Positions 7,065 to 57,935 of a stretch of DNA of 64,000 bases are shown here, one piece after another; positions within the stretch are counted from its first letter, which is position 1; every line of letters begins with the position of its first letter. Under the pieces are notes generated by a model. That model was not told where the DNA came from and searched no databases. It saw nothing but the letters and a program-made list of their open reading frames with translations. The position numbers and the translations under genes are program-made. The stretch comes from a virus: the IMG/VR virus record IMGVR_UViG_3300036945_000641, positions 9,240 to 73,239 of that record, one strand, 5' to 3'.

Positions 7065-10013
7065 ATGGCAACAGATACTAATATTATTGAGGTAACAGGC
7101 GGTGGACTTACTACCGGTGTTCCAGATGTATCTGTAACCACTAGTACATCAACGCCAACAGTTGTTTCTCATGTGGTAACTCCCACACTAGATCCAGCAA
7201 GCTCAAATGAAGAATTAATAAAAGTAGTAGTTACTGGCTTAGGCGAAGAAAATATACCTGATGCTAGACTATTTAAGTTTTTAAGCGACAAATTTGGGCT
7301 TAGTGAACAGAAATTATTTCAAGTTTTCAAGAATTTAAGTGAGTTAAATACTACTGAAGAGCAGGTAAGTAAATTACTACAAAAAGTACTCGAAGACGTT
7401 ACAACTAATTCAGATGTATTTGACCGAGTTTGGACTGCATTTAGAACGTTTGCTGATTCTACTACTAATGCTGAGTTATTAAATCAAGACTTTGAAAAAG
7501 TACTATCAGACGTAGCTAATGCCCCTGATTTGCTAACCTCAGATGTTGGCAAGTATTTAGCAGACATAACAGCACTAGCAAATTTAAGCTATGCAGTTAT
7601 ATTAATAGGCAAAAATTTACAAGATCAAACAATTGGTTTCAGTGATGTACTTAGTACCATTGTAGATTTTAACAGAACCTTTGAAGACACAGTATTTACA
7701 ACTGATGACTTCTTTGGTGAAGCCAACGTTGATGATGATCAAATTGCACAAGTTTTTAAAGTTGTGTTAGACTGGGTTGTTCCTGAAGAACGCTTTGCAG
7801 TTGATGTTGACAAACCAGATGTAGTTGACTTAGCTACACTAAGTGAGCAAGCTTACTTAGAACCACAACTACCAAAATTTGATGCTGTTGTAAACACAGA
7901 TTTGCAAATAGCACTAGTAGACTTATCCAAACTGGATCAAACTTCAAACTCAGAACAACAAATATTCTCAGTAACTAAAGCTGACCGAGTTGATGAAGTA
8001 ACAGTACTTGAGCAAGCTAGCATAGATTTAGTTAGACCAGATATAACAGATCAAACCACAAACTCAGACTTACAAACAGCTGATGTGGGCCAAACTAGTA
8101 TAGATAATTTTAACACTCAAAACGAACAGTACTACTTTGACGTTGACAAGCCAGATATAGAAGACGCTGCAGTTGTAGCGGAGCAAGTCAACAAAGATTT
8201 TACGCGACCAGCAGAAGACGATCAAGTTAGTATTGCAGAATTGCTGCTTACTAAACTAATTGGTTTAAATATTAATGAGATCGATTACTTCTTAGAAGAT
8301 TATGTTTTTGATATAACAGATTACACGTTTAAAGCTGTTCATGCCAGAGACCAGATTACACAAATTATTATAACAAAAGAGTTTGAAGACCTAGTAGACT
8401 CCACAGATGACTTCTTTGGTGAAGCAAATGTTGACGATGATCAAACAGCTACGTTTGATAAAGTACTTGCTGATTATATTACATTTTCAGACGCTTTTGA
8501 ACGACTAGTAGATTACATTAGACTGTTCTCAGAAACAGCTGCACTACTAGAGCAAGTAGAACTAGACACAAACAAAGTTCTTGTAGACCAAACTGCTAAT
8601 TCAGAACAAACAAACTTTGATAGTTTTAAAGTCACGAATGATCAAGCTACCATCTCAGAAACAAGTGTTTTTGATGTAGAGCAAATTAGCAGCGATTTAG
8701 CGACAACGGCTGAGCAAGCAGAACTTCATACTAGCACAGTTCAATTAGACATTGTAAACAACACGGATGATTTTACCAGATTCTATGAAGCTGTTAGAAT
8801 CTTTACTGAACTAACGCAAACCACAGATCGTGTAGAGCAGTTAGTAGAACGTGTTAGCGACGACCAAAGTACTTTTACAGAACTAGTAACGCAAACAGTA
8901 GAAAAATTAGAACTAGATCAAGCTACAACAACCGAACAACAAACGTTTGACTTTGAAGCAGTTTACAGTGAGCTAATAGACGCAACTGATGACTTTTATG
9001 GTGCAGCAAACATTGACGATGATCAAATTGCTGCTTTTGACAAAGTACTAGTAGACTATGCTGTTAACAGCGACACAGTAATAACTGTTGCGGAATTTCT
9101 AAGAACGTTTTTAGAAACAGCTGCTGCCACAGACTTGGCTACACTTGATTTTGCAAAAGACGTAGTTAGCACAGCCACCTTATCAGAAGTATTTGCAGTT
9201 GACTTTTTAACTAGTCGTAGCGAAACAAGCACAGTACTAGAAGAAACTGCTGTTAGCTTTGATACTAGCAGAACAGAAACTATAACACAAGCTGACTTAT
9301 TTACGCAAAGCATTGAGCCTGCTAAATATGAAACAATAGCTACTGTTGACGATGCTGTTTACGATATTGAATTAAACAAGTTTGAAATTGCAAATGCGCT
9401 AGAATCGGCTATAGTAGATTTTTCTACCGCACGAGCAGAAGTAGCCAGCATTTTAGAAAGTTTTATCACTGAGTTTACGGCACTAAGAGACTTTTCAGAA
9501 ACTGTGGTACAAACCGACACAGTTAGCTTAGATACTACAAAACCCACAACAGACTTAGTATCAAATTCAGATATTCAAGTATTTGATACTACTAAACAAA
9601 CATCTGATACCACAACAACCTCAGAAGTTATTGGCAAGGATACAACTACTGAAATTTCAGAGTTAGTAGATGCAACTGACGACTTCTTTGGTGCTGCTAA
9701 CATTGACGATGATCAGATTGCCGTAATTGACAAAGTACTTGCTGATTATGCTGCTAACGCCGACACAGTCACAACATTAACCGACTATCAAAGATCTGTT
9801 GATGAAAACCAAATTTTATCTGAAGTATTCGCTGCTGTTGTTAACAAAGCACTTTCAGATATTACTAACAGTAGCGATACTGTAATCTTGCTTACTGAGT
9901 CTAATAGACTGGATTCAATAGCAATATCCCAAACAATTTCACTTACTTTACAAAGCTATTTCTCTCAGGACTACGCAGAGTTGGGCTATACAGGTGAAAC
10001 TTATACTTATTAA
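7065..10013 (+). CDS. long acidic repeat virion protein
   Basis: 982 aa, D/E/T-rich, four copies of TDDF[FY]GxAN[VI]DDDQ. Confidence 0.7.
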   Translation: MATDTNIIEVTGGGLTTGVPDVSVTTSTSTPTVVSHVVTPTLDPASSNEELIKVVVTGLGEENIPDARLFKFLSDKFGLSEQKLFQVFKNLSELNTTEEQVSKLLQKVLEDVTTNSDVFDRVWTAFRTFADSTTNAELLNQDFEKVLSDVANAPDLLTSDVGKYLADITALANLSYAVILIGKNLQDQTIGFSDVLSTIVDFNRTFEDTVFTTDDFFGEANVDDDQIAQVFKVVLDWVVPEERFAVDVDKPDVVDLATLSEQAYLEPQLPKFDAVVNTDLQIALVDLSKLDQTSNSEQQIFSVTKADRVDEVTVLEQASIDLVRPDITDQTTNSDLQTADVGQTSIDNFNTQNEQYYFDVDKPDIEDAAVVAEQVNKDFTRPAEDDQVSIAELLLTKLIGLNINEIDYFLEDYVFDITDYTFKAVHARDQITQIIITKEFEDLVDSTDDFFGEANVDDDQTATFDKVLADYITFSDAFERLVDYIRLFSETAALLEQVELDTNKVLVDQTANSEQTNFDSFKVTNDQATISETSVFDVEQISSDLATTAEQAELHTSTVQLDIVNNTDDFTRFYEAVRIFTELTQTTDRVEQLVERVSDDQSTFTELVTQTVEKLELDQATTTEQQTFDFEAVYSELIDATDDFYGAANIDDDQIAAFDKVLVDYAVNSDTVITVAEFLRTFLETAAATDLATLDFAKDVVSTATLSEVFAVDFLTSRSETSTVLEETAVSFDTSRTETITQADLFTQSIEPAKYETIATVDDAVYDIELNKFEIANALESAIVDFSTARAEVASILESFITEFTALRDFSETVVQTDTVSLDTTKPTTDLVSNSDIQVFDTTKQTSDTTTTSEVIGKDTTTEISELVDATDDFFGAANIDDDQIAVIDKVLADYAANADTVTTLTDYQRSVDENQILSEVFAAVVNKALSDITNSSDTVILLTESNRLDSIAISQTISLTLQSYFSQDYAELGYTGETYTY

Positions 10014-12599: not shown

Positions 12600-13091
12600 A
12601 TGAATTTAGCTAAAATAAGCAATGGAGCTATAACAGAGTATCCTTTGAGTGCTGAGTCTTACGAACAAGCTGTTGAAAACGGACTTGAGTTTCCTTTTGC
12701 TGCAGAAAAACTAATAGAACTAGGTTTAGTAGATGTTGTAGTAGAGCAAAGACCTATAGTTGATGCGTATGACTACATTCCACAGCCTCCACAATTAGTG
12801 GATGGTGTGTGGCATGTAACTTGGACCAAAGACTTAGATACTCCAGAAGATGTACTAGCCGTTCGCACACTAAACTTGTCTAATAGTATGCGAGCTACAA
12901 GAGACTTGTTAATCAAAGAAATACAGTGGCGTTTTGAACGATATGCTAGACTAGCAAGACTAAATAAGCCACAAGTAGATAACATAGCAGATCTTGATGC
13001 ATATGTACAAGATTTAACGGAAGTGCCTGAACAAGCAGGCTTTCCGTTTAACATAACATGGCCAGAAAAAGCAGTGGGAGGTAACGCATGA
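12600..13091 (+). CDS. tail fibre assembly chaperone
   Basis: RATRDLL...YVQDLTEVPEQAGFPFNITWPEK chaperone motif. Confidence 0.75.
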   Translation: MNLAKISNGAITEYPLSAESYEQAVENGLEFPFAAEKLIELGLVDVVVEQRPIVDAYDYIPQPPQLVDGVWHVTWTKDLDTPEDVLAVRTLNLSNSMRATRDLLIKEIQWRFERYARLARLNKPQVDNIADLDAYVQDLTEVPEQAGFPFNITWPEKAVGGNA

Positions 13092-15304
13092 GTTACATAG
13101 GAAATAGTCCAGGCGTGGCATCACAACGTGTTCAAACATCGTTTACAGCCACTGCCAATCAAACTGTATTCACACCAAGTGCAGGATATACGCTAGGGTA
13201 CTTGGACGTTTATCAAAACGGTGTTAAACTAATCAGTGGCGACGACTATGTGGCAGCCGATGGTTTAGTGTTTACCCTAACCTCAGGTGCACTATTAGGC
13301 GACAGCGTTGAAGCCATTGCCTACTTTCCACGTGGATTGTCAGATGGTTACATCAAAGCCGAAGCAGACACTCTATTAGCCACAAAAGCAGCAGATAATG
13401 CTGTGGTAAAATTAACTGGTGATCAAACTGTTGCTGGTGTAAAAACATTTGGTTCAAATCCCATATTAGGTGCTGGTGTGGTAAACGGCGTACCATACTT
13501 AAATGGTTCTAAAGCGTTAACCAGCGGCAGTGCTCTAGTTTTTGACGGTACTAATTTTGGAGTTGGCACAAGTTCCCCCTTATCAGTATTAAACGTAAAC
13601 GGTACTGGCGGCGAGCTCATTCGTATTTCAATTACGGCTGACTCAGGCACGTTACAAGAGCCAGCACTTGGTTTTGCAACTGGTGTAACCAACACCCATC
13701 CTGCCGCAAAAATATCTGCTCTTGAGTTTGATGCTTCAGATAGTCGTGCGTCTTTGTTGTTTTACACACGAGGAACCAATACTGATTCTGCTCCAACAGA
13801 ACGTGTTCGTATTGATTCTAGCGGTAACTTCTTAACGGGCGGATTAACTTCATACCCAGGCCAAGCAGATGCAAACTCAACTGCTAGTGGTGCAATTGTT
13901 CTTAACACCAAGCGTGAATTACGCTGGAATAACACCAATGCCTCCATCTATGGTGGCTCAGGTGGTGCAGACGATAACTTATATTATCATTCAGGTAATT
14001 CTCATATTTGGCGTGTAAGTGGGTCAGAAAAAGCTCGTATTACGTCAGACGGTAACTTTGGTGTTGGGTCAAGTAATCCTACTCAAAGGCTTCATGTTAA
14101 TACTAGTTATGGTTTAAACTCGGGCGCTCCTGCAACTTCAGGCACAACTCAAAACGGAATTTTGCGCTTAACACCAAATAGTGCTGTATACGGCGAAACA
14201 TTAGACTTTGGTATGAATGTTGGTCCAACTTATGCATGGATTCAATCTACTAATAAAGATGGTTTGGCAACAAATTACCCGTTAGTACTAAACCCTAATG
14301 GTGGTAGTGTAGCTATTGGTACCCTAACTCCTTGGACAAAATTTCAAGTAACACATAGTGTAAATAATACTAATTCATCAGCTACTAATATTAGTGATTA
14401 TCAAAATGCTGCTATTGTTTTACATAATCAAGATGAAGTTGGTACAGGAAATAAAGCTGGACTGTTTTTTGCTTTTGCAGGAAATCCGGGATTACTAGCT
14501 GGCATAGATGGTTTTAAAGAGTCTGGCACTTGGAATACGGGGCTACGCTTCTATACAAACAATCAAACTGGCGGCAACGTTGGTACCATAGCTGAGCGTA
14601 TGCGTATTACTCCAGCCGGTAACTTTGGTATTGGTACTTCAAACCCAACAGCTAAACTAGAAGTTAAACTGGCGGGTGACGGCGACATGTTTATTGGTCG
14701 ATATAGTGGCGGTAATGCAAAGTTAGTATACGCGTACCAGTCAAGTTCTGACGGCTTTTTAGAGCTAAGAACTGGTGCTGACAATACTGTTACTAAATTA
14801 TCAGGCTACAATGGCACTCCATCGTACTTTATGTCTAAGGTCGGTATTAACACTACTAGTCCAGACGAGCAACTACACGTTAACGGACACATTAAAGCAG
14901 ACACGGCTTATCTAGCAAATGGAAATGCTCGTTTACATTTTTATACTTATCAAATTGGTACAGCATATCCATATGCACACTTAAAAACTAGTATACCTTG
15001 GGAAAATCATGTTCAAATGTACAGTGTAGGTATTACAGGGCATGAATATGGCTCAAGTAAGCCTATTGATGCGCAAGTAGTTTGGTATAGTTATAGTCCT
15101 TCTAATGGTGTAGTAAGTATAGGCTCGTCTGGTACGCATACTATAGAGTTATATAGATCAACTGATGGTTACATTGTAATCCGAGTAAATTTACCAAGTG
15201 GATACTATACTGCATTTACTGTGTCACAATATATGACTAACCAAGGCCTAGCAGGTTTCACAATTTTAGGCAGTGCTGGAAGTGGTACTACTAACTACTA
15301 TTAA
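13088..15304 (+). CDS. tail fibre protein 2
   Basis: MSYIGNSP; repeated ERxRIxxxGNFGIGTSNP fibre repeats. Confidence 0.75.
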   Translation: MSYIGNSPGVASQRVQTSFTATANQTVFTPSAGYTLGYLDVYQNGVKLISGDDYVAADGLVFTLTSGALLGDSVEAIAYFPRGLSDGYIKAEADTLLATKAADNAVVKLTGDQTVAGVKTFGSNPILGAGVVNGVPYLNGSKALTSGSALVFDGTNFGVGTSSPLSVLNVNGTGGELIRISITADSGTLQEPALGFATGVTNTHPAAKISALEFDASDSRASLLFYTRGTNTDSAPTERVRIDSSGNFLTGGLTSYPGQADANSTASGAIVLNTKRELRWNNTNASIYGGSGGADDNLYYHSGNSHIWRVSGSEKARITSDGNFGVGSSNPTQRLHVNTSYGLNSGAPATSGTTQNGILRLTPNSAVYGETLDFGMNVGPTYAWIQSTNKDGLATNYPLVLNPNGGSVAIGTLTPWTKFQVTHSVNNTNSSATNISDYQNAAIVLHNQDEVGTGNKAGLFFAFAGNPGLLAGIDGFKESGTWNTGLRFYTNNQTGGNVGTIAERMRITPAGNFGIGTSNPTAKLEVKLAGDGDMFIGRYSGGNAKLVYAYQSSSDGFLELRTGADNTVTKLSGYNGTPSYFMSKVGINTTSPDEQLHVNGHIKADTAYLANGNARLHFYTYQIGTAYPYAHLKTSIPWENHVQMYSVGITGHEYGSSKPIDAQVVWYSYSPSNGVVSIGSSGTHTIELYRSTDGYIVIRVNLPSGYYTAFTVSQYMTNQGLAGFTILGSAGSGTTNYY

Positions 15305-15307
15305 AGA

Positions 15308-15598
15308 ATGTATACCATGGAAAATACTAATATACCCCAACCAAATCCAGAAATTGTAATACTGCTAGATGAACTGAATAAGTATAAGCGTTCTCGAAAG
15401 TTATTGTATGGAGAAATATCAGATCAATTAGATATGTTATTTAAAGATATTGACTCTGGAGTCTTTGGAGAAAATGCTAAACAAGGTTTATTTTATAAAC
15501 ATATTAGCAAAGTAAAAGAGTCTATTGAAAAGCCTGATACTGACTTAATTAAGCAGCAGTTAGACACTTTAATTACGTCACAACAAGGAGTTAATTAA
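15308..15598 (+). CDS. small fibre-associated protein
   Basis: R..LYGEISDQLDMLFKDI motif typical of fibre partner genes. Confidence 0.6.
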   Translation: MYTMENTNIPQPNPEIVILLDELNKYKRSRKLLYGEISDQLDMLFKDIDSGVFGENAKQGLFYKHISKVKESIEKPDTDLIKQQLDTLITSQQGVN

Positions 15599-17667
15599 TG
15601 TCAAGAGCCTCAGCCTTAGCAAAAACGCTTGGCGCCGACAGCGCCCTTAATGCTGGTGATGTAAGTGGATTAGCCACTATCTCCACCTCAGGTTCCGCCA
15701 GTGACCTTATCACTGGCACCCTGCCTCCTGACCGCATAGCTGACCTAAGCATTTCAAATGCAAAGCTTACAGGCATTGCAGGTAACAAAGTCAGCTATAA
15801 CAATTCGGTAAGTGGTATTAGTGCAAACACTGTGCAAGAAGCCATTGATTACTTAAAAACAATCAGTGGTGGTGCTAGTTCAGGTCAGCAAGCAAGCTAT
15901 TCTCGTCAAAAGTTTACTGCCACTGCTGCCCAAACAACATTCTCAGTAACTTACACAGTGGGTTACCTAGAAGTATACCTAAATGGCGTATTACTAGATA
16001 TTACCGACTATACTGCCAGTACGGGTACAACTGTGGTGTTAAGTGCTGGAGCGCAAGCTGGTGACGAATTGGTTACTATTGCACTAGACAGCTTTGCAAT
16101 TGCTGAGCTTTTACGTGTTACAACAGTATCGCCAAGCGCACCCACTGATGGTATTGTCATAGGTGCAGACGGTCAATTTGGTATTGGCATTGCAAATCCA
16201 ATATATAAATTTATGGTTGGTGATGGTACAAGAAATATGTGTATCAACCCAAATAGCACACTTGATGGAATATTTATAGGTACAACAACAAATAAACCTT
16301 TGCTGTTCGGTACTAATGATTTTGAGCGAGCGCGTATTGACATTAATGGTAACTTTTTACTAGGCAGCACAGCTAACTATAATTTACGTGCAATTATTGC
16401 CGGCCCAGCAACTGCAGCCTCAACTGGAAGTGGAAGCTATATTGTTGCTTCGTTTATTGATACTAACGCAATGGCAGCTGGTGTTGGCGGTGGACTAGGT
16501 TTTCAAGGTAATGATGGGCAAAACGGTTATGTAACTTTTGCCTCAATTAACGGCTCTAAAGAAAATGGAGTAAGCGGCAATTACGCTAGTTACTTAAGCT
16601 TTAAAACTAGAGCAAATGGTCAAGCCTTAACAGAACGCATGACCATTGGTTCAAACGGTCTTGTTACTATACCAAACGGTATTCAAGCAAAAGCACCTAC
16701 ATATGAGCTATATGGAGGCAACTATAATGAAGCTGGTTTAACTGGAACACTAAGAATTCGACTAGGTACAGTTTATATAGCGCAGGGCGGCATGGATGTG
16801 ACTATTAAACTAGCTGTAGGTGCAGGATATAATGCCGGAGAAGGTCAAGTATTTGAGTATGTACTTAGATTACGTACTTCAAACGGTAGTAGTTCTACAG
16901 CGGGTTCAAGTGGTGCAATTTACATCAATGGATTTGTAGAAAAAATTACTGTAGATGCTTTTGGAACCACAAATCCAGTAGAATCTTTCTTAGTTCAAGA
17001 AATAAATACTGGACAATATAACATATATTTTGACCCAAATAGTTTAATTGGTAACTACAGTCATTATATTGTAGAAACTCCTGCAACTGCTACATGGGTG
17101 CACAATCCAGCAGTATTAAATATTTCTGAAATTACAGGCAACTATTTAACAGTTAGCACATGGCGTACTACGGCACTTACTGATACTAGTGGGTTTATTA
17201 GTAATACTCGTGGTATTAAATTTCCTGCATATCAATTTCAATCCAGCGACCCTAATACGCTAGATGATTATGAAGAGGGAACTTGGACACCTTCTATTAC
17301 TGGTGGTGATGGCGGCTCAGTTACTTATAACTTTAACAGTGGGGTTTACCGCAAGATTGGCAGCATGGTTTACTTACAGTTTGGTGTAAACATAGCAAGC
17401 AGAAGTGGTGGTAGCGGTGAGATCTTAATCAATGGATTACCATTTCCTTCTATTACACGAGGCGCGTATCAAGAAGCATCGGCTTCGCTACAAGGTGGTG
17501 GCTGGGCAAATTCGGCATTAGCTGGAAAAGTTTATATGTTTGTTATGAACGATATGACACAAATGCGTACTCGCTATCTACAAAACTCTGACGCCCCTGT
17601 GTCGTTTACTGATATCCAAGCCGGTACATATTTTAACGGAACAATTGTTTATTGCACTGCGGCGTAA
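15598..17667 (+). CDS. tail fibre protein 3
   Basis: Fibre repeats; NTLDDYEEGTWTP...YRKIGSMV C-terminal module. Confidence 0.75.
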   Translation: MSRASALAKTLGADSALNAGDVSGLATISTSGSASDLITGTLPPDRIADLSISNAKLTGIAGNKVSYNNSVSGISANTVQEAIDYLKTISGGASSGQQASYSRQKFTATAAQTTFSVTYTVGYLEVYLNGVLLDITDYTASTGTTVVLSAGAQAGDELVTIALDSFAIAELLRVTTVSPSAPTDGIVIGADGQFGIGIANPIYKFMVGDGTRNMCINPNSTLDGIFIGTTTNKPLLFGTNDFERARIDINGNFLLGSTANYNLRAIIAGPATAASTGSGSYIVASFIDTNAMAAGVGGGLGFQGNDGQNGYVTFASINGSKENGVSGNYASYLSFKTRANGQALTERMTIGSNGLVTIPNGIQAKAPTYELYGGNYNEAGLTGTLRIRLGTVYIAQGGMDVTIKLAVGAGYNAGEGQVFEYVLRLRTSNGSSSTAGSSGAIYINGFVEKITVDAFGTTNPVESFLVQEINTGQYNIYFDPNSLIGNYSHYIVETPATATWVHNPAVLNISEITGNYLTVSTWRTTALTDTSGFISNTRGIKFPAYQFQSSDPNTLDDYEEGTWTPSITGGDGGSVTYNFNSGVYRKIGSMVYLQFGVNIASRSGGSGEILINGLPFPSITRGAYQEASASLQGGGWANSALAGKVYMFVMNDMTQMRTRYLQNSDAPVSFTDIQAGTYFNGTIVYCTAA

Positions 17668-43714: not shown

Positions 43715-44398
43715 TTATGCTGCACGTACCCAGCCTTTATGCATGTTACGCTTGCCATTTAAAAGGTCTGTAACTTTAGGTTGTAATAATCCGTGTTCTT
43801 TTGCAAATTTTGTAACATACATAATTTCATATATTTTTCCATCTGGGGATAATAACTTAGGGTACTGTTTGCCCCTATAATACTTTTGTTCTACTCTTAT
43901 GCGCTCTAATTCTGTATATTCTTTTGGACATACTTGTTTTAACCAAGAATGACTTTCTAAAGCCGCGATATGTCTAATTGTATATAGCGACACACCAGTA
44001 ATTTCATGTATTTCTCTTTTAGAGAGAGTAGGGTTTATACTCACTAATAGTCTTAGTACTATAATATATTGTTCATTAGTATATTTTGATTGACCGGCAG
44101 TTTCTCCATATAATACTGGATTTCCGGCTTCATATAAGGTATTAAACCCATTATCTACAGAGTCAAATATATCAATAGCCTCTTTTTCATAGATATTTAG
44201 CTCAGATATAGCGCACTCTGCTAAAATATCTAGGCTAGCTATGCCATAATTATTATATGCTGCTTGTAATTTAGGGGCTGCAACGCCTCTATTTAGAGCA
44301 CTTTTATGTTTTGAAAACCTAGTTTCAATGTCTATTGATTGCCCAATATATACTTTTTTAGTATTATTGAAATTTAATTTATATATGCCACAAGTCAT
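43715..44398 (-). mobile_element. free-standing GIY-YIG homing endonuclease gene
   Basis: GIYKL...VYIGQS..IETRFSKH; NUMOD-like C-terminus HKGW; more AT-rich than flanks. Confidence 0.85.
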
Positions 44399-51489: not shown

Positions 51490-52095
51490 TTATTCTTGTT
51501 TTTCGGCCTCTAGCTGAGCGTGTTTCTCGGCTACAGCGCTAAGTCGTTTTACAACTTCATCTGAAGTCATCCAAATATCTTTGTTGTGTAGCATTGAGTC
51601 AATTTCTTCGTGTGTTAAGAAATCTGCGTAAACTTCACGCATAAAGTTTTCTGACCAGCGACGTTCAAACTGTAGTTGGTCGTACATTTCTCCACCTTTG
51701 CCAAACACGCCTGCACTATAGTTGTGAAACATAAATAGTGAGTGTGGGGTTACTTCTTGCTGATGACCATGTAAGAAGATCATTGTTGCAGCACTCATGC
51801 AAGCGCCTTCAACTGAAGTAACAATAGTGGCTTCGGTCTCGCCCATAACTCGTAAAAATTGTAGTGTGGTATAAAGATCACCACCACCTGAGTTAATGTA
51901 GATACGAACTGTGTCAGCACTGGTGGCATTGCGAATTGTGTCAAACCACTCAATGTACTCTTGTGGCTCACAAATTTCACCACTCAAGTAGAACTCATAT
52001 AAGCGTCCGATTGATTTAGAAAAGCTATTACCATTCTTGTCCGTTTCAAACAATTTAGGGTCGAGAATGTTTGTCTTTTTAGTTGTCATTTTCAT
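51490..52095 (-). CDS. ClpP-like serine protease
   Basis: IYINSGGG, ACMSAATMIF, FMFH, DIWMTSDE. Confidence 0.85.
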   Translation of the reverse strand: MKMTTKKTNILDPKLFETDKNGNSFSKSIGRLYEFYLSGEICEPQEYIEWFDTIRNATSADTVRIYINSGGGDLYTTLQFLRVMGETEATIVTSVEGACMSAATMIFLHGHQQEVTPHSLFMFHNYSAGVFGKGGEMYDQLQFERRWSENFMREVYADFLTHEEIDSMLHNKDIWMTSDEVVKRLSAVAEKHAQLEAEKQE

Positions 52096-52114
52096 CTTAT
52101 ACTCGTTTATAAAT

Positions 52115-52457
52115 TAGGGCCAGTATTCTGTTACGAGGAACTGGCAAAACCCTAAGCAGCGTTTAGGCTGCTAATGCGTACGTGTTATCGTTTGCAGTTA
52201 TTTTTGTTTTGCTGTTACGACCAGGAAACCCCAGTCCTACGGCTGTCGCATTGCCGAGTTGTCTGCTTTAATACTCTTAGCCTAATCGAAAGCCAGGTCA
52301 GCCCCATCAAAAGCACTCCTAGTGTTCTTAGGTCGGGAATTCCAGTCCTCAGCCGTATGAGAAACAGCTTACATACTACCCTACTCAATGCTTATGGTGG
52401 AGCTGGCGGGAGTCGAACCCGCGTCTTAAACTCTTTTCTATCGGCTTCATACAACCA
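52115..52457 (-). ncRNA. ssrA: circularly permuted (two-piece) tmRNA
   Basis: Acceptor piece with T-arm and CAGCTCCACCA (~52457-52395) precedes coding piece starting GGGGCTG at 52305; G3.U70; tag ANDNTYALAA* at 52195-52163. Confidence 0.92.
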
Positions 52458-52565
52458 TACTATAACACACTACCCTTGCTGGGTGCTCCCAGTTACCCGC
52501 GGAAGGTGTGCTCGAGCTTACTCCGCATATATGCATTAAGTGGCGAGTAGTGTGTTATAGTATGG
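52455..52565 (-). ncRNA. stem-closed cassette B
   Basis: Perfect 19-bp inverted repeat ccatactataacacactac; internal hairpins. Confidence 0.6.
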
Positions 52566-54687: not shown

Positions 54688-54761
54688 TGGCATCCCGAGA
54701 GGGACTCGAACCCCCACTTACGGTTTTGGAGACCGCAGTGCTGCCATTACACTATCGAGAG
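54688..54761 (-). tRNA. tRNA-Trp (CCA)
   Basis: Cloverleaf, loop CTCCAAA. Confidence 0.92.
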
Positions 54762-54834: not shown

Positions 54835-55053
54835 TTACTCAGGAATTTCTAGTAATTTTTCATTAATAGCGGCCAGTAGTGCAGGCTCGTCTGTTCCTGT
54901 GTAAGCTACGTTAAATTTAATATTGTAAGTTCCGATATTTTTAAATACGCCAGGAATTACTTCTTCGCGAACTTCTACTTTTGCTGTGGTTTCAGGAGGA
55001 AACGTACTTACTGTTAGGGTAGATACGTGTACTTGTTTGTTTGTTAAATCCAT
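54835..55053 (-). CDS. hypothetical protein (last gene of Hint module)
   Basis: 72 aa ORF. Confidence 0.6.
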   Translation of the reverse strand: MDLTNKQVHVSTLTVSTFPPETTAKVEVREEVIPGVFKNIGTYNIKFNVAYTGTDEPALLAAINEKLLEIPE

Positions 55054-55062
55054 AATTTTTCT

Positions 55063-55506
55063 TTATAAATAAGAGTAGATACCTGCTCTATAAGTTAGGT
55101 TACTAGTAACTGTGGTAGCTTGTAGTGTTACGTTATAATCTATTTTATATCCTGTAAACCTAAGGTCACTACCAGCTATATCTGCACACAATAAATCTGT
55201 GTCAGCTGCAGGAGTATTATTAACTCCACGACCATAAAAATTAGTTACAATTGAACCATTAGCAGGAACATATTTTCCCAATAATTCGCTAACTGTATTA
55301 CCATTGCTGGCATTAAATTTAATTGTTAAGTATAAGAAATCATTTGAACCCATACTAACAAATGGTACTGTTACAACGGCTGCTCCTACATCAATAGTAC
55401 CTGTTATAAAGTTTTTTAAGTAAACAAGTTTATCATTACTACTAAACTTTAGGACACCTGAGTTATTGTTTATTTTGATTGATGTTGCATCAACTTTTAG
55501 TGTCAT
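55063..55506 (-). CDS. beta-rich tail-tip-like protein
   Basis: IKINNNSGVLKFSSNDK N-terminus resembles tail-tip subunits. Confidence 0.5.
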   Translation of the reverse strand: MTLKVDATSIKINNNSGVLKFSSNDKLVYLKNFITGTIDVGAAVVTVPFVSMGSNDFLYLTIKFNASNGNTVSELLGKYVPANGSIVTNFYGRGVNNTPAADTDLLCADIAGSDLRFTGYKIDYNVTLQATTVTSNLTYRAGIYSYL

Positions 55507-56138
55507 GGTGTTACCGCCAACTCTAAGTTAACAGGGTTTTTAGTATACATAAATTTTAAAGTATACCAGAATTTTGGCATAGTACCTGTGTATAATACCC
55601 CATTACTTGCTTGATAATAGTTACTGCCTGTAACATCAAACACATAAGTACCTGCACCTATGGGTGTAAAATTTGCTAGTTTAAAGAAAGCACCAATTGG
55701 TCTAACCCCACCACTTCCGTCAGTATTTGGAATACCCCTAACATCACCAATTATTCTAAAAGTGCCCGCGTTTGGGGTCCCGTTAAAGCTATAACTTAAA
55801 TAATCTGAAACGAAAGCTCCGGGGGACATCATAACTGGAGGGCTACCGCTATATAACGTGAATACGTCATTTCCTGGAGCATATGGAAGATATCCGCTTC
55901 TACTATAGCCAACAGTAGCCATATTTCCGCCAATCCAACCATCAACATAATAGCCGCCATACTCTGTTCTGTCTGTAATAGTATTATATCCAGCAATTGC
56001 CGGGGCTCTTTGAAATCCACCAGCTTTAAACTGACCATTAGTATCAGTTTTTAAATACTGATTACCAGACCAAAAAGTTGTGTCTCCATTAGAGGCTCTG
56101 GTTCTAAATTCGTTTGGTTTTATTATTATTCGTTCAAC
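55503..56138 (-). CDS. beta-rich, aromatic-rich putative receptor-binding protein
   Basis: G/Y/F-rich; FRTRASNGDTTFWSGNQYLK N-terminus; start uncertain. Confidence 0.5.
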   Translation of the reverse strand, partial: VERIIIKPNEFRTRASNGDTTFWSGNQYLKTDTNGQFKAGGFQRAPAIAGYNTITDRTEYGGYYVDGWIGGNMATVGYSRSGYLPYAPGNDVFTLYSGSPPVMMSPGAFVSDYLSYSFNGTPNAGTFRIIGDVRGIPNTDGSGGVRPIGAFFKLANFTPIGAGTYVFDVTGSNYYQASNGVLYTGTMPKFWYTLKFMYTKNPVNLELAVTP

Positions 56139-56403
56139 TGGCAAGATACACCTCTATATTATATAATATTTCTGCAGGTAAATCTGCTCCATATGTTACT
56201 GCCTGACAATATAGCCTTATTTCGCCAGTTGATTCGTCGTAAGACGCAAAAAAGTTCCTATAACCTGCACCGCCGTAATTAACCCTGTAGCCATTGCCAT
56301 AAGTAATACCATTTACTTTTAAAAATAGTATTGGATTAGTAACATTAGCATATCCAACACTAACATATTGTACTGCTTGTTGTGGTATAGCTGCTTGTGC
56401 CAT
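56134..56403 (-). CDS. small beta-rich protein
   Basis: 89 aa, 3 bp downstream of Hint gene. Confidence 0.55.
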   Translation of the reverse strand: MAQAAIPQQAVQYVSVGYANVTNPILFLKVNGITYGNGYRVNYGGAGYRNFFASYDESTGEIRLYCQAVTYGADLPAEILYNIEVYLAS

Positions 56404-56406
56404 AAT

Positions 56407-57288
56407 TTACCTATTTGGATGAAATATTCGACCTAGCATTTTGCTAGCAAATACTATAATATTTTTAAGTAGGCTTTTTTCACGGCGTATCTGACTACTA
56501 ATAAACTTCAGAAGTAAATCTGATTTAATGTAACTAACGCCTACATTTATTAAGTAAGCCCCGTACTGTACGTGTTTGCCTTTTGAAGTAAAAAAGACTA
56601 ATAAGTCTATTACTTCTTGTTGGGTTAGCCACCCTTTGCTAAACATATAACTCAGAGAGTTTCCCGAAAACATAATACTAGTAGTATTATATCCGTTAGC
56701 AATATAAGTGCCATCACCAGTTAACCATAAGTTATAAACAAAATTTCCAGTTGCTGGTTTTATTGTATATCCCCGCAACTGCTCGGGCTTTCCTAACCAA
56801 GGGTATAAGTCCCACACAGCAACAGGGTCAACTGCTTGTAAAACTCCGTCAATTATTAGTGGGTGGTTTACTGTTGCAAATGGCTTAAGCTTAGGGTCTG
56901 GACTATATAAATATTTCCATAAAGTATCAGGTACTTTTTCTATAAAAGTTACTGTATTTATAGTGCCTGTAGTACCCAATACTTTATCCCCTACTTGTAT
57001 ATCTACAATAGGCCTAGTACTGTTATCTGGTAGCGTAACCAAAGTATCGGGGGTAAAGCAGTCGCAGCCACCGTCATCCCAATAGATAAATTGTTGAGCA
57101 AGTCCAGGAAAAGAAGCAGGATCTGCCATAATTACCTTAGCTTTCAACTGTAGGTATGTTAATCCCGAATGAAAGTTAATATCAGCTAAGTGTGCACCAG
57201 GATTAGTTAAAACATCTGTGCCAATCAAACTTGTTTGTCCAATGACTACAACGCCTGTGGCCCCATCTGCATAAAAAGTTTTAGACAT
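56407..57288 (-). CDS. Hint (Hedgehog/intein)-domain protein
   Basis: GGCD/CFTPDTLV block A, IQVGDKV, TVNH block B, VYNL..YIANG block F; no terminal His-Asn. Confidence 0.85.
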   Translation of the reverse strand: MSKTFYADGATGVVVIGQTSLIGTDVLTNPGAHLADINFHSGLTYLQLKAKVIMADPASFPGLAQQFIYWDDGGCDCFTPDTLVTLPDNSTRPIVDIQVGDKVLGTTGTINTVTFIEKVPDTLWKYLYSPDPKLKPFATVNHPLIIDGVLQAVDPVAVWDLYPWLGKPEQLRGYTIKPATGNFVYNLWLTGDGTYIANGYNTTSIMFSGNSLSYMFSKGWLTQQEVIDLLVFFTSKGKHVQYGAYLINVGVSYIKSDLLLKFISSQIRREKSLLKNIIVFASKMLGRIFHPNR

Positions 57289-57823
57289 ATCTATATATCC
57301 CTTTTACTTTTGCAGGGTTTAATGTATCAACACTCGAGAGTTTGTTGGGTATATGTTGTAGTACTTTATTATCACCTAAGTAAAGTGCAATATGCGATAA
57401 TACAGTATTAGGCATATTTTCATATACAAGCATATCTCCTACTTGCATAACTTGAACTTCAACAAAGCCGTGTTTTAAAAACCAAGGGCCCATACCAGCC
57501 ATATAGTAGTTATAAAAGTCTCTGTTAGGAATACTTTTATATAGCTGTGTTAAATTGGTGCCTTTGTTATCGTCATGCCAGTTAAAGCAGATGACTACAC
57601 AATCAGCTTGACGTAGACCATAACTACGGCCAATATAAGAACTTTTTGGAGATATAAGAGAAACTTTTCTCTCTAGTTTATTTACGTAAATACTAGGGCT
57701 TTGAAAACTTTCGGTTACTAGGAACATTCCGTCTTCTGCTTCTACTAAGTCGCCTTCTACTATATTAAATCTAGTTCCGATTTTATCGAAATAATTTTCA
57801 TAATCCATGTCATATAACGCCAA
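57281..57823 (-). CDS. NlpC/P60 peptidase (lambda gpK-like)
   Basis: YIGRSY...ADC, GDML, HIALYLGDNKVLQH, GIYR. Confidence 0.85.
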   Translation of the reverse strand: MALYDMDYENYFDKIGTRFNIVEGDLVEAEDGMFLVTESFQSPSIYVNKLERKVSLISPKSSYIGRSYGLRQADCVVICFNWHDDNKGTNLTQLYKSIPNRDFYNYYMAGMGPWFLKHGFVEVQVMQVGDMLVYENMPNTVLSHIALYLGDNKVLQHIPNKLSSVDTLNPAKVKGIYRYV

Positions 57824-57860: not shown

Positions 57861-57935
57861 TGGTGGAAATAAGTAGATTCGAACTACTGACCTAGGCCGT
57901 ATGAAGACCGTGCACTACCACTGTGCTATATTTCC
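57861..57935 (-). tRNA. tRNA-Met (CAT)
   Basis: Cloverleaf, loop TTCATAC, CCA. Confidence 0.9.

Follow-up and report, generated by a model that had tools for sequence, protein, structure and literature searches.

The subject of this analysis is a pair of adjacent genes, g2 and g3, on the minus strand of a 64,000-nucleotide stretch of viral DNA (hereafter the window; IMG/VR record IMGVR_UViG_3300036945_000641, positions 9,240 to 73,239), where they belong to a block of six genes, g1 to g6. The product of g2 consists of a short N-terminal piece, a Hint domain and a helical tail, and structure models together with uninterrupted homologs support the reading that this N-terminal piece and the whole of g3 are two separately encoded parts of one small beta-sandwich protein. 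The Hint domain and the tail behind it form a cassette that, going by the sequences collected here, is a nearly phage-only family, an intein-derived module carried by unrelated baseplate and tail proteins. As to how the two halves come together, we see an even chance that the cassette cuts itself off and that the N-terminal piece then reassembles non-covalently with g3.

Gene g2 (56407-57288, minus strand, 293 amino acids) can be divided into the putative N-terminal half of the split protein (residues 1-76, 57061-57288), of which residues 46-76 are a strand or linker ending in GGCD, a Hint domain of bacterial intein-like (BIL) or Hog type (residues 77-205, 56674-57060) and a conserved five-helix tail (residues 206-293, 56410-56673), all read from the minus strand. 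Its AlphaFold model (42 homologs; predicted local distance difference test, pLDDT, 86.9) has a folded region at residues 1-45, a disordered stretch at 52-74, the Hint domain at 77-205 with pLDDT > 90, and a five-helix bundle at 210-289. Superposed with VIA-align, the Hint domain best matches BIL2 of Tetrahymena BUBL1 (6tmm; Z 15.2, root-mean-square deviation (rmsd) 2.9 over 127 residues), then the Clostridium thermocellum BIL 2lwy (Z 12.4), Hedgehog (1at0; Z 11.4, rmsd 2.6 over 111 residues) and many inteins (Z 9-12), 27 solved Hint or intein chains reaching Z ≥ 8. Foldseek returned 17 PDB matches at E ≤ 0.001 (6tmm at E 2.8e-7), and the nearest viral models in BFVD are several entries named 'Hint domain containing protein [uncultured Caudovirales phage]'. 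The sequence comparison points the same way, as a profile of 14 family members matches BIL2 at E 6.4e-6 across the entire Hint domain, TVNH aligned on TVNH, and its similarity to Hedgehog is marginal (E 0.6). Pfam models match only the first ~50 Hint residues of g2, below their cutoffs; the PT-HINT family (PF07591) gives no match to g2 at E ≤ 1, and it matches some relatives weakly (L019, E 6.6e-4, below cutoff) as well as the extra Hint copies of locus L014.

The earlier note on this DNA had described a Hint domain with Cys1 and T-x-x-H and without a terminal Asn, and this description is borne out by the fold, by the alignment with BIL2 and by a residue census. At the junction, DDGGCD is directly followed by CFTPDT, Cys77 being Cys1; T139-x-x-H142 is present, the Hint domain ends in NGYNTTS, and Ser204-Ile205 stand at the positions of the intein Asn and the +1 nucleophile. 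Alignments of g2 to the RecA and GyrA inteins stop at residue 204, and HMMER places the T-H-S found in the family on the terminal A-H-A of BIL2 (an N143A mutant, by the title of its PDB entry). The census covers 71 distinct family sequences (of 80 sequences, seven were missed by the anchor pattern and two duplicates were removed). Cys1 is found in 66 of the 71, the other five being gene calls that start at an internal Met, and Thr139, His142 and Asn198 are found in every one. Position 203 is Thr in 37 sequences and His in 30; position 204 is Ser in 67/71 and Asn in none; position 205 is Ile in 66/71. Upstream of Cys1, Gly occurs in 42/71 at position -3 and again in 42/71 at position -2, with Asp (30/71) and Gly (16/71) at position -1. 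A group of stand-alone Hint-plus-tail proteins that seemed to lack Cys1 (P0040-P0044) was considered and set aside: P0043 is nearly identical to the cassette of locus L031 and starts at an internal Met just past Cys1, and all five are probably 5'-cut gene calls.

With fold, nucleophile and T-x-x-H all present, the domain belongs to the Hint superfamily. A canonical splicing intein ends in Asn, Gln or Asp followed by Cys, Ser or Thr, and g2 has neither part of that ending; because both the Asn and the +1 nucleophile are missing, thioester formation and cleavage at the N-terminus are the only chemistry possible, with no route to splicing or to C-terminal cleavage. Kinship with BIL domains is indicated by the sequence and structure matches and by N-terminal partners that vary (gp5-like, DUF4815 and others). 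BIL2 itself (6tmm, 6y75) is the best match by both measures, shares Cys1 (Ala in the crystal) and the TVNH block, and likewise stands after a Gly-rich C-terminus and acts on the N-terminal junction. It differs in keeping a terminal Asn (hence the N143A mutant), where the family in the window has Ser, and, according to PMC8616854, in lying between eukaryote ubiquitin-like domains that become conjugated to lysines; here, in contrast, the hosts are phage tail proteins and a helical tail follows the Hint domain. With Hedgehog/Hog (1at0) the domain shares the Hint fold, Cys1 and T-x-x-H, the absence of a C-terminal Asn, a predicted processing at the N-terminal side only and the presence of a further C-terminal region, whereas the sequence similarity is marginal, the tail has no detected kinship to the sterol-recognition region and the setting is that of a phage.

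The second line of evidence concerns the proteins on either side of the cassette. Gene g3 (56134-56403, minus strand, 89 amino acids) starts 3 nucleotides past the g2 stop, and the earlier note had proposed that its product and the N-peptide of g2 look like the two halves of one subunit, to be checked by a search for uninterrupted homologs. Such homologs exist. A g3 profile searched with HMMER against 1.84 billion representative proteins found 57 relatives (29 at E ≤ 1e-10), and a profile of 16 N-peptides matched five of these (E 1e-11 to 2.6e-21), with the N-part directly before the g3-like domain and no Hint domain between them. The clearest case is P0090 (154 residues; N-part 3-64, g3 part 80-152), and the others are P0079 (174 residues), P0101 (170 residues) and the C-terminal ends of P0068 (601 residues) and P0065 (616 residues). 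The AlphaFold model of P0090 (pLDDT 90.6) reproduces the N-part of g2 and continues into one beta-sandwich (residues 46-154), so that a single predicted fold runs across the junction: the first long strand (48-59) belongs to the N-half, the next strand covers 74-85, and the cassette site corresponds to the loop at 60-73. Compared with the PDB, this fold resembles C-terminal domains of neuraminidase, phage receptor-binding proteins or tailspikes, and lectins, all at Z < 8, a generic beta-sandwich likeness that should be taken as a lead only; among viral models it had no match at E ≤ 0.001.

The two halves are also predicted to bind one another. A complex of g3 with g2 residues 1-76 was modelled with an interface score (ipSAE) of 0.64 (runs 0.59, 0.64 and 0.65), against 0.00 for the best of three controls, and passed a mark that 58 of 80 solved complexes reach and only 2 of 110 mismatched pairs do. 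At least 90% of contacts are shared between the runs, in which the partners have pLDDT 55-63 and residues 46-54 and 57-72 of the N-peptide meet residues 1-21 and 62-89 of g3; the N-peptide stretch involved is the one that is disordered in the g2 monomer model. Halves of split genes tend to pass this kind of test, which tempers the result, and the pass is not the recall of a known complex, since no solved structure lies close to the fold (best Z 6.2). The complex model therefore supports, short of demonstrating, the binding of the N-piece to g3.

A split intein would have its Hint fold divided between the end of the first ORF (open reading frame) and the start of the second, and in g2 the fold is complete; g3 moreover aligns from its first residues with the fused homologs and with the family profile, which leaves no room for a C-intein. 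Among known genomic arrangements the nearest is the 'fractured gene' described by Dassa et al. (2009, PMC2677866), which combines split inteins with an endonuclease gene and occurs mainly in phages. As there, a conserved coding region in phage DNA is broken into adjacent open reading frames (ORFs) at an intein-type element, with uninterrupted versions elsewhere; the differences are that here a complete, non-splicing Hint domain sits on the first ORF, that there is neither a C-intein before g3 nor an endonuclease between the two genes, and that instead of a DNA enzyme a small beta-sandwich protein or a tail protein is the host. Thus the nearest relative of the element is the BIL class, its nearest architecture is that of Hog, and its nearest genomic arrangement is the fractured gene. 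Several other candidate links were examined. A likeness of the N-peptide to the N-terminal domains of relatives of 370-510 residues (P0016, P0025 and P0030 types) was rejected at an hhalign probability of 0.1, and the metagenome locus L037, found with the g3 alignment, proved spurious, its 32-residue match falling at a place in a bacterial contig of high GC that no plausible gene covers. Compared by phmmer with every ORF that bears a Hint domain, neither g3-g6 nor the N-peptide gave a significant match, and a search for stand-alone N-halves of 41-133 residues gave no candidate, which is weak evidence, as it was made with a word index.

The helical tail of some 85 residues that the earlier note had described is modelled as a bundle of five helices (210-217, 223-234, 238-251, 257-267 and 273-289) with pLDDT > 90, and it is co-inherited with the Hint domain, a phmmer search finding it behind the Hint domain in 30 of 36 viral loci (E ≤ 0.03); in the census, G243 is kept in 70/71 and N248 in 64/71 sequences. 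Its best match among solved structures (Z 5.0) is at noise level for helical bundles, and Pfam and NCBIfam hold no family for it. Those 36 loci come from a scan of IMG/VR, in which L001 alone also has the neighbour genes of g2; in the other 35 the match is limited to g2 residues ~77-290, i.e. Hint domain and tail. A word-index search added 44 cassette protein clusters, all metagenomic, and among one genome each from 185,579 prokaryote species a single cassette locus was found, at the contig end of a Burkholderiales metagenome-assembled genome. The cassette forms the C-terminal ~220 residues of ORFs sized 296-2397 residues, in every case with a linker rich in Gly, Pro or Arg in front of it, e.g. 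GGGGGG or RRRRRRRRRGGG directly before CF.

Its hosts fall into unrelated classes. Giants of the DUF4815/phrog_358 type carry it in L003, L010 and L014 (E 1e-53 to 1e-57), with DUF4815/phrog_358 also among the neighbours in L019; according to the PHROG paper (PMC8341000) the phrog_358 family is annotated as 'virion structural', 'baseplate' or 'tail', and the C-part of these giants is called 'VrlC' or 'adsorption associated tail protein' in cultured T4-like phages. An N-terminal hub OB domain of T4 gp5 type (oligonucleotide/oligosaccharide-binding) is found in five of ten mid-length relatives (PHROG E 1e-24 to 1e-30), one of which, P0029, matches T4 gp5 (E 2e-8) and another central spike (E 3e-10) in the PDB; a viral scan with P0029 gave no match. 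An ORF generally follows closely, starting at -4 to +34 nucleotides from the cassette stop in 27 of 31 readable loci, and the one in L019 has a homolog behind the cassette in 18 of the other 35 loci. A quick tree of 71 cassettes groups them by class of host protein (17 label changes, where shuffling gives a mean of 43.8), which argues for mostly vertical inheritance of the cassette with some moves between genes. A literature search turned up no description of the cassette, and none of a Hint domain attached to a phage hub or VrlC protein, and a search on bacterial intein-like domains and bacteriophage, by titles and abstracts, found none on tail proteins.

Two cassette-bearing loci have peculiarities of their own. 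The 2397-residue DUF4815 giant of L014 (3518-10711, plus strand) contains, upstream of its cassette, four Hom_end_hint stretches together with PT-HINT and Intein_splicing matches, and may carry true inteins or tandem Hint domains as well. In L023, two radical-SAM-like ORFs (phrog_14086; 14787-17580, plus strand) lie a few kb downstream of a 378-residue cassette-bearing protein, in which a hydrophobic stretch ends the N-part directly before Cys1.

The position occupied by the cassette in g2 appears, from the gene content of sister phages, to be interchangeable among domains in this lineage. A viral scan with a narrower g3 alignment added five contigs (L038-L042), of which L039, L040/L041 and L042 have g1, the N-half and g3-g6 in order, with a gene 2 that lacks the Hint domain and carries other helical domains after the W-x-D-G...C linker of the N-half. 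In L042 (3471-3998, plus strand) the added domain is CFI-box-CTERM (NF041770), which scores 49.4 bits (cutoff 40; E 2.8e-13) and begins at residue 77, the very residue of Cys1 in the window. Gene 2 of L040 (3426-3989, plus strand) has a CFI-like start and no family match, and that of L039 has an unrelated domain of 162 residues ending in a hydrophobic helix. None of these add-on domains resembles the tail of g2 (hhalign probability ≤ 2% for L039, L040 and L042), and g2 in turn has no NF041770 match at E ≤ 1; the first Cys of CFI-box-CTERM may mark a processing site, and a literature search for the CFI-box found no paper. The fused homologs P0101 and P0065 retain a linker of G-S-K-C type, so that in GGC-D-C of g2 the first Cys probably belongs to the native linker and the second is Cys1 of the Hint domain. 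The presence of non-Hint domains at the same site further implies that the split protein apparently works without Hint chemistry.

A sequence of events consistent with these observations can be proposed. Cys77 would attack the Asp76-Cys77 peptide bond in an N-to-S acyl shift, as the invariant catalytic residues suggest, and with Ser-Ile at its end the Hint domain, judging by alignment and fold, is unable to splice or to cut its own C-terminus. The thioester would most likely be hydrolysed and the N-piece freed, after which residues 46-72 of the N-piece are predicted to add beta-strands to g3 and so complete the sandwich non-covalently, the Hint-plus-tail product being discarded or given a separate role. 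Hydrolysis is favoured for three reasons. First, 49 of the 57 g3 relatives begin with the g3 domain itself, and in these the position behind the initiator Met is taken by G in 29, P in 12, A in 5 and S in 3, and by Cys or Thr in none. Second, the ORFs behind the cassette in other loci begin variously with MK, MP, MT, MS, MA or MG and share no common nucleophile. Third, the sister phages have non-Hint add-ons at the same place.

Weighing against this sequence of events are several points, the first of which is that the tail is as strongly conserved as the Hint domain, odd for a domain that is to be discarded. Caulobacter phage Cr30, which lacks the Hint domain, encodes the giant protein in two parts, as adjacent genes (1201 and 787 residues), which implies that in the giants the cassette may stand at a naturally occurring boundary between genes without having split anything; giants aside, fused and split states both exist for the g2 N-piece and g3. 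The 49 g3-type ORFs, moreover, were read as database proteins, and the BIL2 thioester, according to PMC8616854, conjugates to amines and is not hydrolysed. The surroundings of the block, genes of early type (for a ligase, a helicase, a ClpP-like protease and an endonuclease) on the other strand from the structural genes, likewise leave a role in the virion unproven. Lastly, g3-g6, the N-half and the fused homolog had no match in 50,697 deposited phage genomes, and neither the 3.2-kb DNA, g2, a 982-residue structural ORF, g5 nor the fused homolog P0090 had a match among deposited phage genomes.

The more serious rival to cleavage with non-covalent reassembly is a one-sided ligation, which we regard as possible, if doubtful. 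Here the N-terminal amine or a lysine of g3, held beside the Asp76 thioester by complementation of the two fragments, would capture it by aminolysis, joining the N-piece to g3 and releasing Hint domain and tail, so that the one-chain protein or an isopeptide-linked version of it would be restored by a kind of trans-splicing without a C-intein. The geometry is suitable, as the cassette site is a short loop between strands 48-59 and 74-85 of P0090, from which it follows that the two new termini should be close together, and g3 residues 1-6 lie within the predicted interface. The nearest solved relative, BIL2, according to PMC8616854 makes isopeptide bonds from its thioester to substrate lysines. 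All 49 g3-type ORFs, furthermore, have a small second residue. Such a residue predicts removal of the initiator Met by Met aminopeptidase and a free small N-terminus. However, the 49 sequences are homologous and the shared start may reflect inheritance and not selection, none of them offers Cys or Thr in that position and 12 have Pro, the varied starts of the post-cassette ORFs have no nucleophile in common, and the non-Hint domains in sister phages occupy the same site. A broader version of ligation, which we put forward with similar reserve, is that the Hint domain does more than excise itself and leaves a tail-tip protein with a reactive thioester at its C-terminus. The partner encoded by the following gene would dock by strand complementation and capture the thioester with its N-terminal amine or a lysine, welding or cross-linking tail or baseplate subunits during assembly without ATP; in such a scheme the helical tail may be a platform that times or positions the capture, and the same chemistry may serve the gp5-like hubs and the giant VrlC-type proteins.

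That no processing takes place at all is unlikely. The Hint domain and tail would then be a permanent C-terminal domain on the sandwich of the N-piece and g3, for instance a structural knob or a delivered cargo, and the conserved Cys, Thr and His would serve folding or metal binding. The other domains found at the same place in sister phages suit this idea, as the site may be a display point, and the conservation of the tail suggests a function of its own; yet across unrelated host proteins none of the 66 complete sequences has lost Cys1 and none of the 71 has lost T-x-x-H, which is the signature of retained catalysis, and what precedes the junction is always a flexible linker rich in Gly, Pro or Arg, as would be expected of a cleavage site.

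Most improbable is a Hedgehog-like transfer, in which the tail would be an adduct-recognition region that recruits a lipid, sugar or thiol, leaving a C-terminal modification on the N-piece (on the hub or giant tail protein where other phages are concerned): the Hog-like architecture (a Hint domain with Cys1 and T-x-x-H, no Asn, then a helical region of ~85 residues), the co-inheritance of the tail with its near-invariant residues and the Gly-rich linker, comparable to GG before CF at the Hedgehog junction, speak for it, but the tail is unlike any solved structure or family, the block has no lipid- or sugar-handling gene, Gly is in the minority at position -1, where Asp prevails, and nothing points to the identity of the nucleophile.

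One further known system invites comparison. PT-HINT domains (PF07591; Zhang et al. 2012, PMC3482391) are described from long proteins of filamentous or tail-fibre-like kind, where they stand close to the C-terminus, before the final domain and with predicted autoproteolysis, which is much the position of the cassette described here. There, however, the toxin C-termini vary on a constant stalk, whereas here the tail is constant and the N-terminal proteins vary, and no immunity gene is evident here.

The cassette adds a distinct form, conserved and nearly phage-only as far as sequence collections reach, in which a Hint domain with a helical tail forms the C-terminus of baseplate hubs, of giant adsorption proteins and of one half, the first, of a putative split protein. 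Hint domains are otherwise familiar as splicing inteins in replication enzymes, from eukaryotes as agents of Hedgehog-type lipid transfer, and from bacterial toxins, where they act as release peptidases. With two small genes of 382 codons in all, g2 and g3 would be a compact system for studying how a thioester is resolved by a non-splicing Hint domain beside a docked cognate partner. They also suggest that a phage gene can stay functional when broken at an intein-type site without a split intein, which bears on the origin of split inteins and of gene fragmentation. Were ligation or cross-linking true, it would be a new chemistry of virion assembly and a possible tool for protein engineering. 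For CFI-box-CTERM, an uncharacterised domain, its occurrence at the same site in sister phages would provide a first functional context.

The block to which both genes belong is a conserved unit. All six genes lie on the minus strand at exactly the coordinates given in the earlier note, which had called them tightly packed and AT-rich, and neighbouring genes indeed overlap or stand 3-9 nucleotides apart in a region with a GC content of 0.37-0.39; the g2 ATG overlaps the 3' end of g1, and the last codon of g2 doubles as the Shine-Dalgarno-like AGG triplet of g3. A scan for promoters and terminators stayed at chance level (14 found, 13.4 expected). Upstream the block is bounded by a tRNA-Met (57861-57935, minus strand), 37 nucleotides from g1, and downstream of g6 by a tRNA-Trp (54688-54761, minus strand), both called by ARAGORN. 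The gene order g1-g6 is repeated in five further viral contigs (L001 and L039-L042), which marks the block as a conserved unit of a phage lineage and not a chance run of ORFs; a sixth contig, L038, is cut at its end and carries g3-g6 only. In L001 a collagen-like protein with GPQ repeats, typical of phage fibres, is encoded some 2 kb downstream of the block (14497-15183, plus strand).

Gene g1 (57281-57823, minus strand, 180 amino acids) encodes an NlpC/P60 (C40) peptidase, probably of lambda gpK type, matching Pfam PF00877 (NLPC_P60; E 2.1e-5, 24.9 bits against a cutoff of 23) and phrog_30, 'minor tail protein' (E 1.1e-11). Its candidate catalytic residues, Cys75, His144 and His157, are invariant in 5/5 aligned homologs. 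With tblastn it matched 758 phage records at 25-27% identity over ~90% of its length, the matches being annotated as minor tail protein, tail assembly protein or C40 peptidase, and the best annotated one is a Prok-JAB plus NLPC_P60 gene of Pantoea phage AAS23 that lies between tail L and tail I/J, the position of lambda K. The name 'gpK-like' is thus a fair description, judged by the NlpC/P60 domain with its conserved Cys-His-His and the weak full-length similarity to such minor tail and tail assembly genes; it does not extend to a JAB domain, for which the Pfam search found no family match in g1, nor to the gene neighbourhood, since g1 lies in a tRNA island and not after a tape-measure gene, and the identity is 25-27% only.

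Among the remaining genes, g4 (55503-56144, minus strand, 213 amino acids) encodes a Gly-rich beta protein with no match in Pfam, PHROG, NCBIfam or the Protein Atlas. Alignment to L001, L038 and L040/41 is limited to its first ~51-69 residues, its C-terminus matching weakly in L001 and L039, so past its N-terminus the protein differs strongly between related phages. It shares its N-terminal ~40 residues with g5 (hhalign probability 84%, E 8e-6), and fibre proteins that dock on a common adaptor often share an N-terminal segment. The beta-rich product of g5 (55063-55506, minus strand, 147 amino acids; family unassigned) is kept in L001 and L038-L042 (E 5e-22 to 1e-33), and the Protein Atlas gives it weak leads only, to viral hypothetical and tail-fibre-type proteins, all below 0.9. 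A kinship of g5 with the g3 family, hinted at by a match to one member (E 9.7e-5), was rejected because the profile-profile comparison with the fused family gave a probability of 0.1. The last gene, g6 (54835-55053, minus strand, 72 amino acids), encodes a small protein with 67% identity in L001, is also present in L038-L042, and matches no family in Pfam or PHROG.

Judging by its relatives, the block with its gpK-like first gene is most likely an accessory tail-tip or adsorption module. The label 'tail-tip-like' that the earlier note had used holds up indirectly, in that the other host proteins of the cassette are baseplate or tail proteins and g1 resembles K-type genes. The nearest recognisable tail gene in the window is a tail-fibre-like ORF (13088-15304; phrog_18345, E 4e-28), ~40 kb away on the opposite strand.

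By its gene content the window, part of one contig of 73,239 bases, comes from a divergent tailed phage, with plus-strand ORFs at 1-25 kb, including the tail-fibre-like gene, and minus-strand ORFs at 25-64 kb, among which are ribonucleotide reductase, NAD ligase, helicase, a ClpP-like protease, endonucleases and 25 calls of tRNAs or transfer-messenger RNA (tmRNA). An ORF of GIY-YIG/HNH homing-endonuclease type lies between replication genes (43715-44398, minus strand; phrog_314, E 5e-13), a sign that mobile elements are active in this genome. At 52107-52505 (minus strand) the phage encodes a permuted, two-piece tmRNA, which scores above the gathering scores of both Rfam models (tmRNA_permuted 120.7 bits, beta_tmRNA 107.2 bits) and for which ARAGORN reads the tag ANDNTYALAA; L001 likewise has a tmRNA (16184-16581) with the tag ANDEVFALAA. 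The betaproteobacterial type of this tmRNA hints at the host group and fits the only cassette match in a prokaryote genome, the Burkholderiales assembly mentioned above (L045). Within the tmRNA gene ARAGORN also called a 95-base 'tRNA-His' (52395-52489, minus strand; anticodon atg), probably the tRNA-like part of the tmRNA and not a tRNA. Adjoining the tmRNA gene in the tRNA island is the gene for a ClpP-like 'ATP-dependent protease' (51490-52095, minus strand; phrog_1827, E 8e-62), and the pairing of a tagging RNA with a protease in one phage is a combination worth noting.

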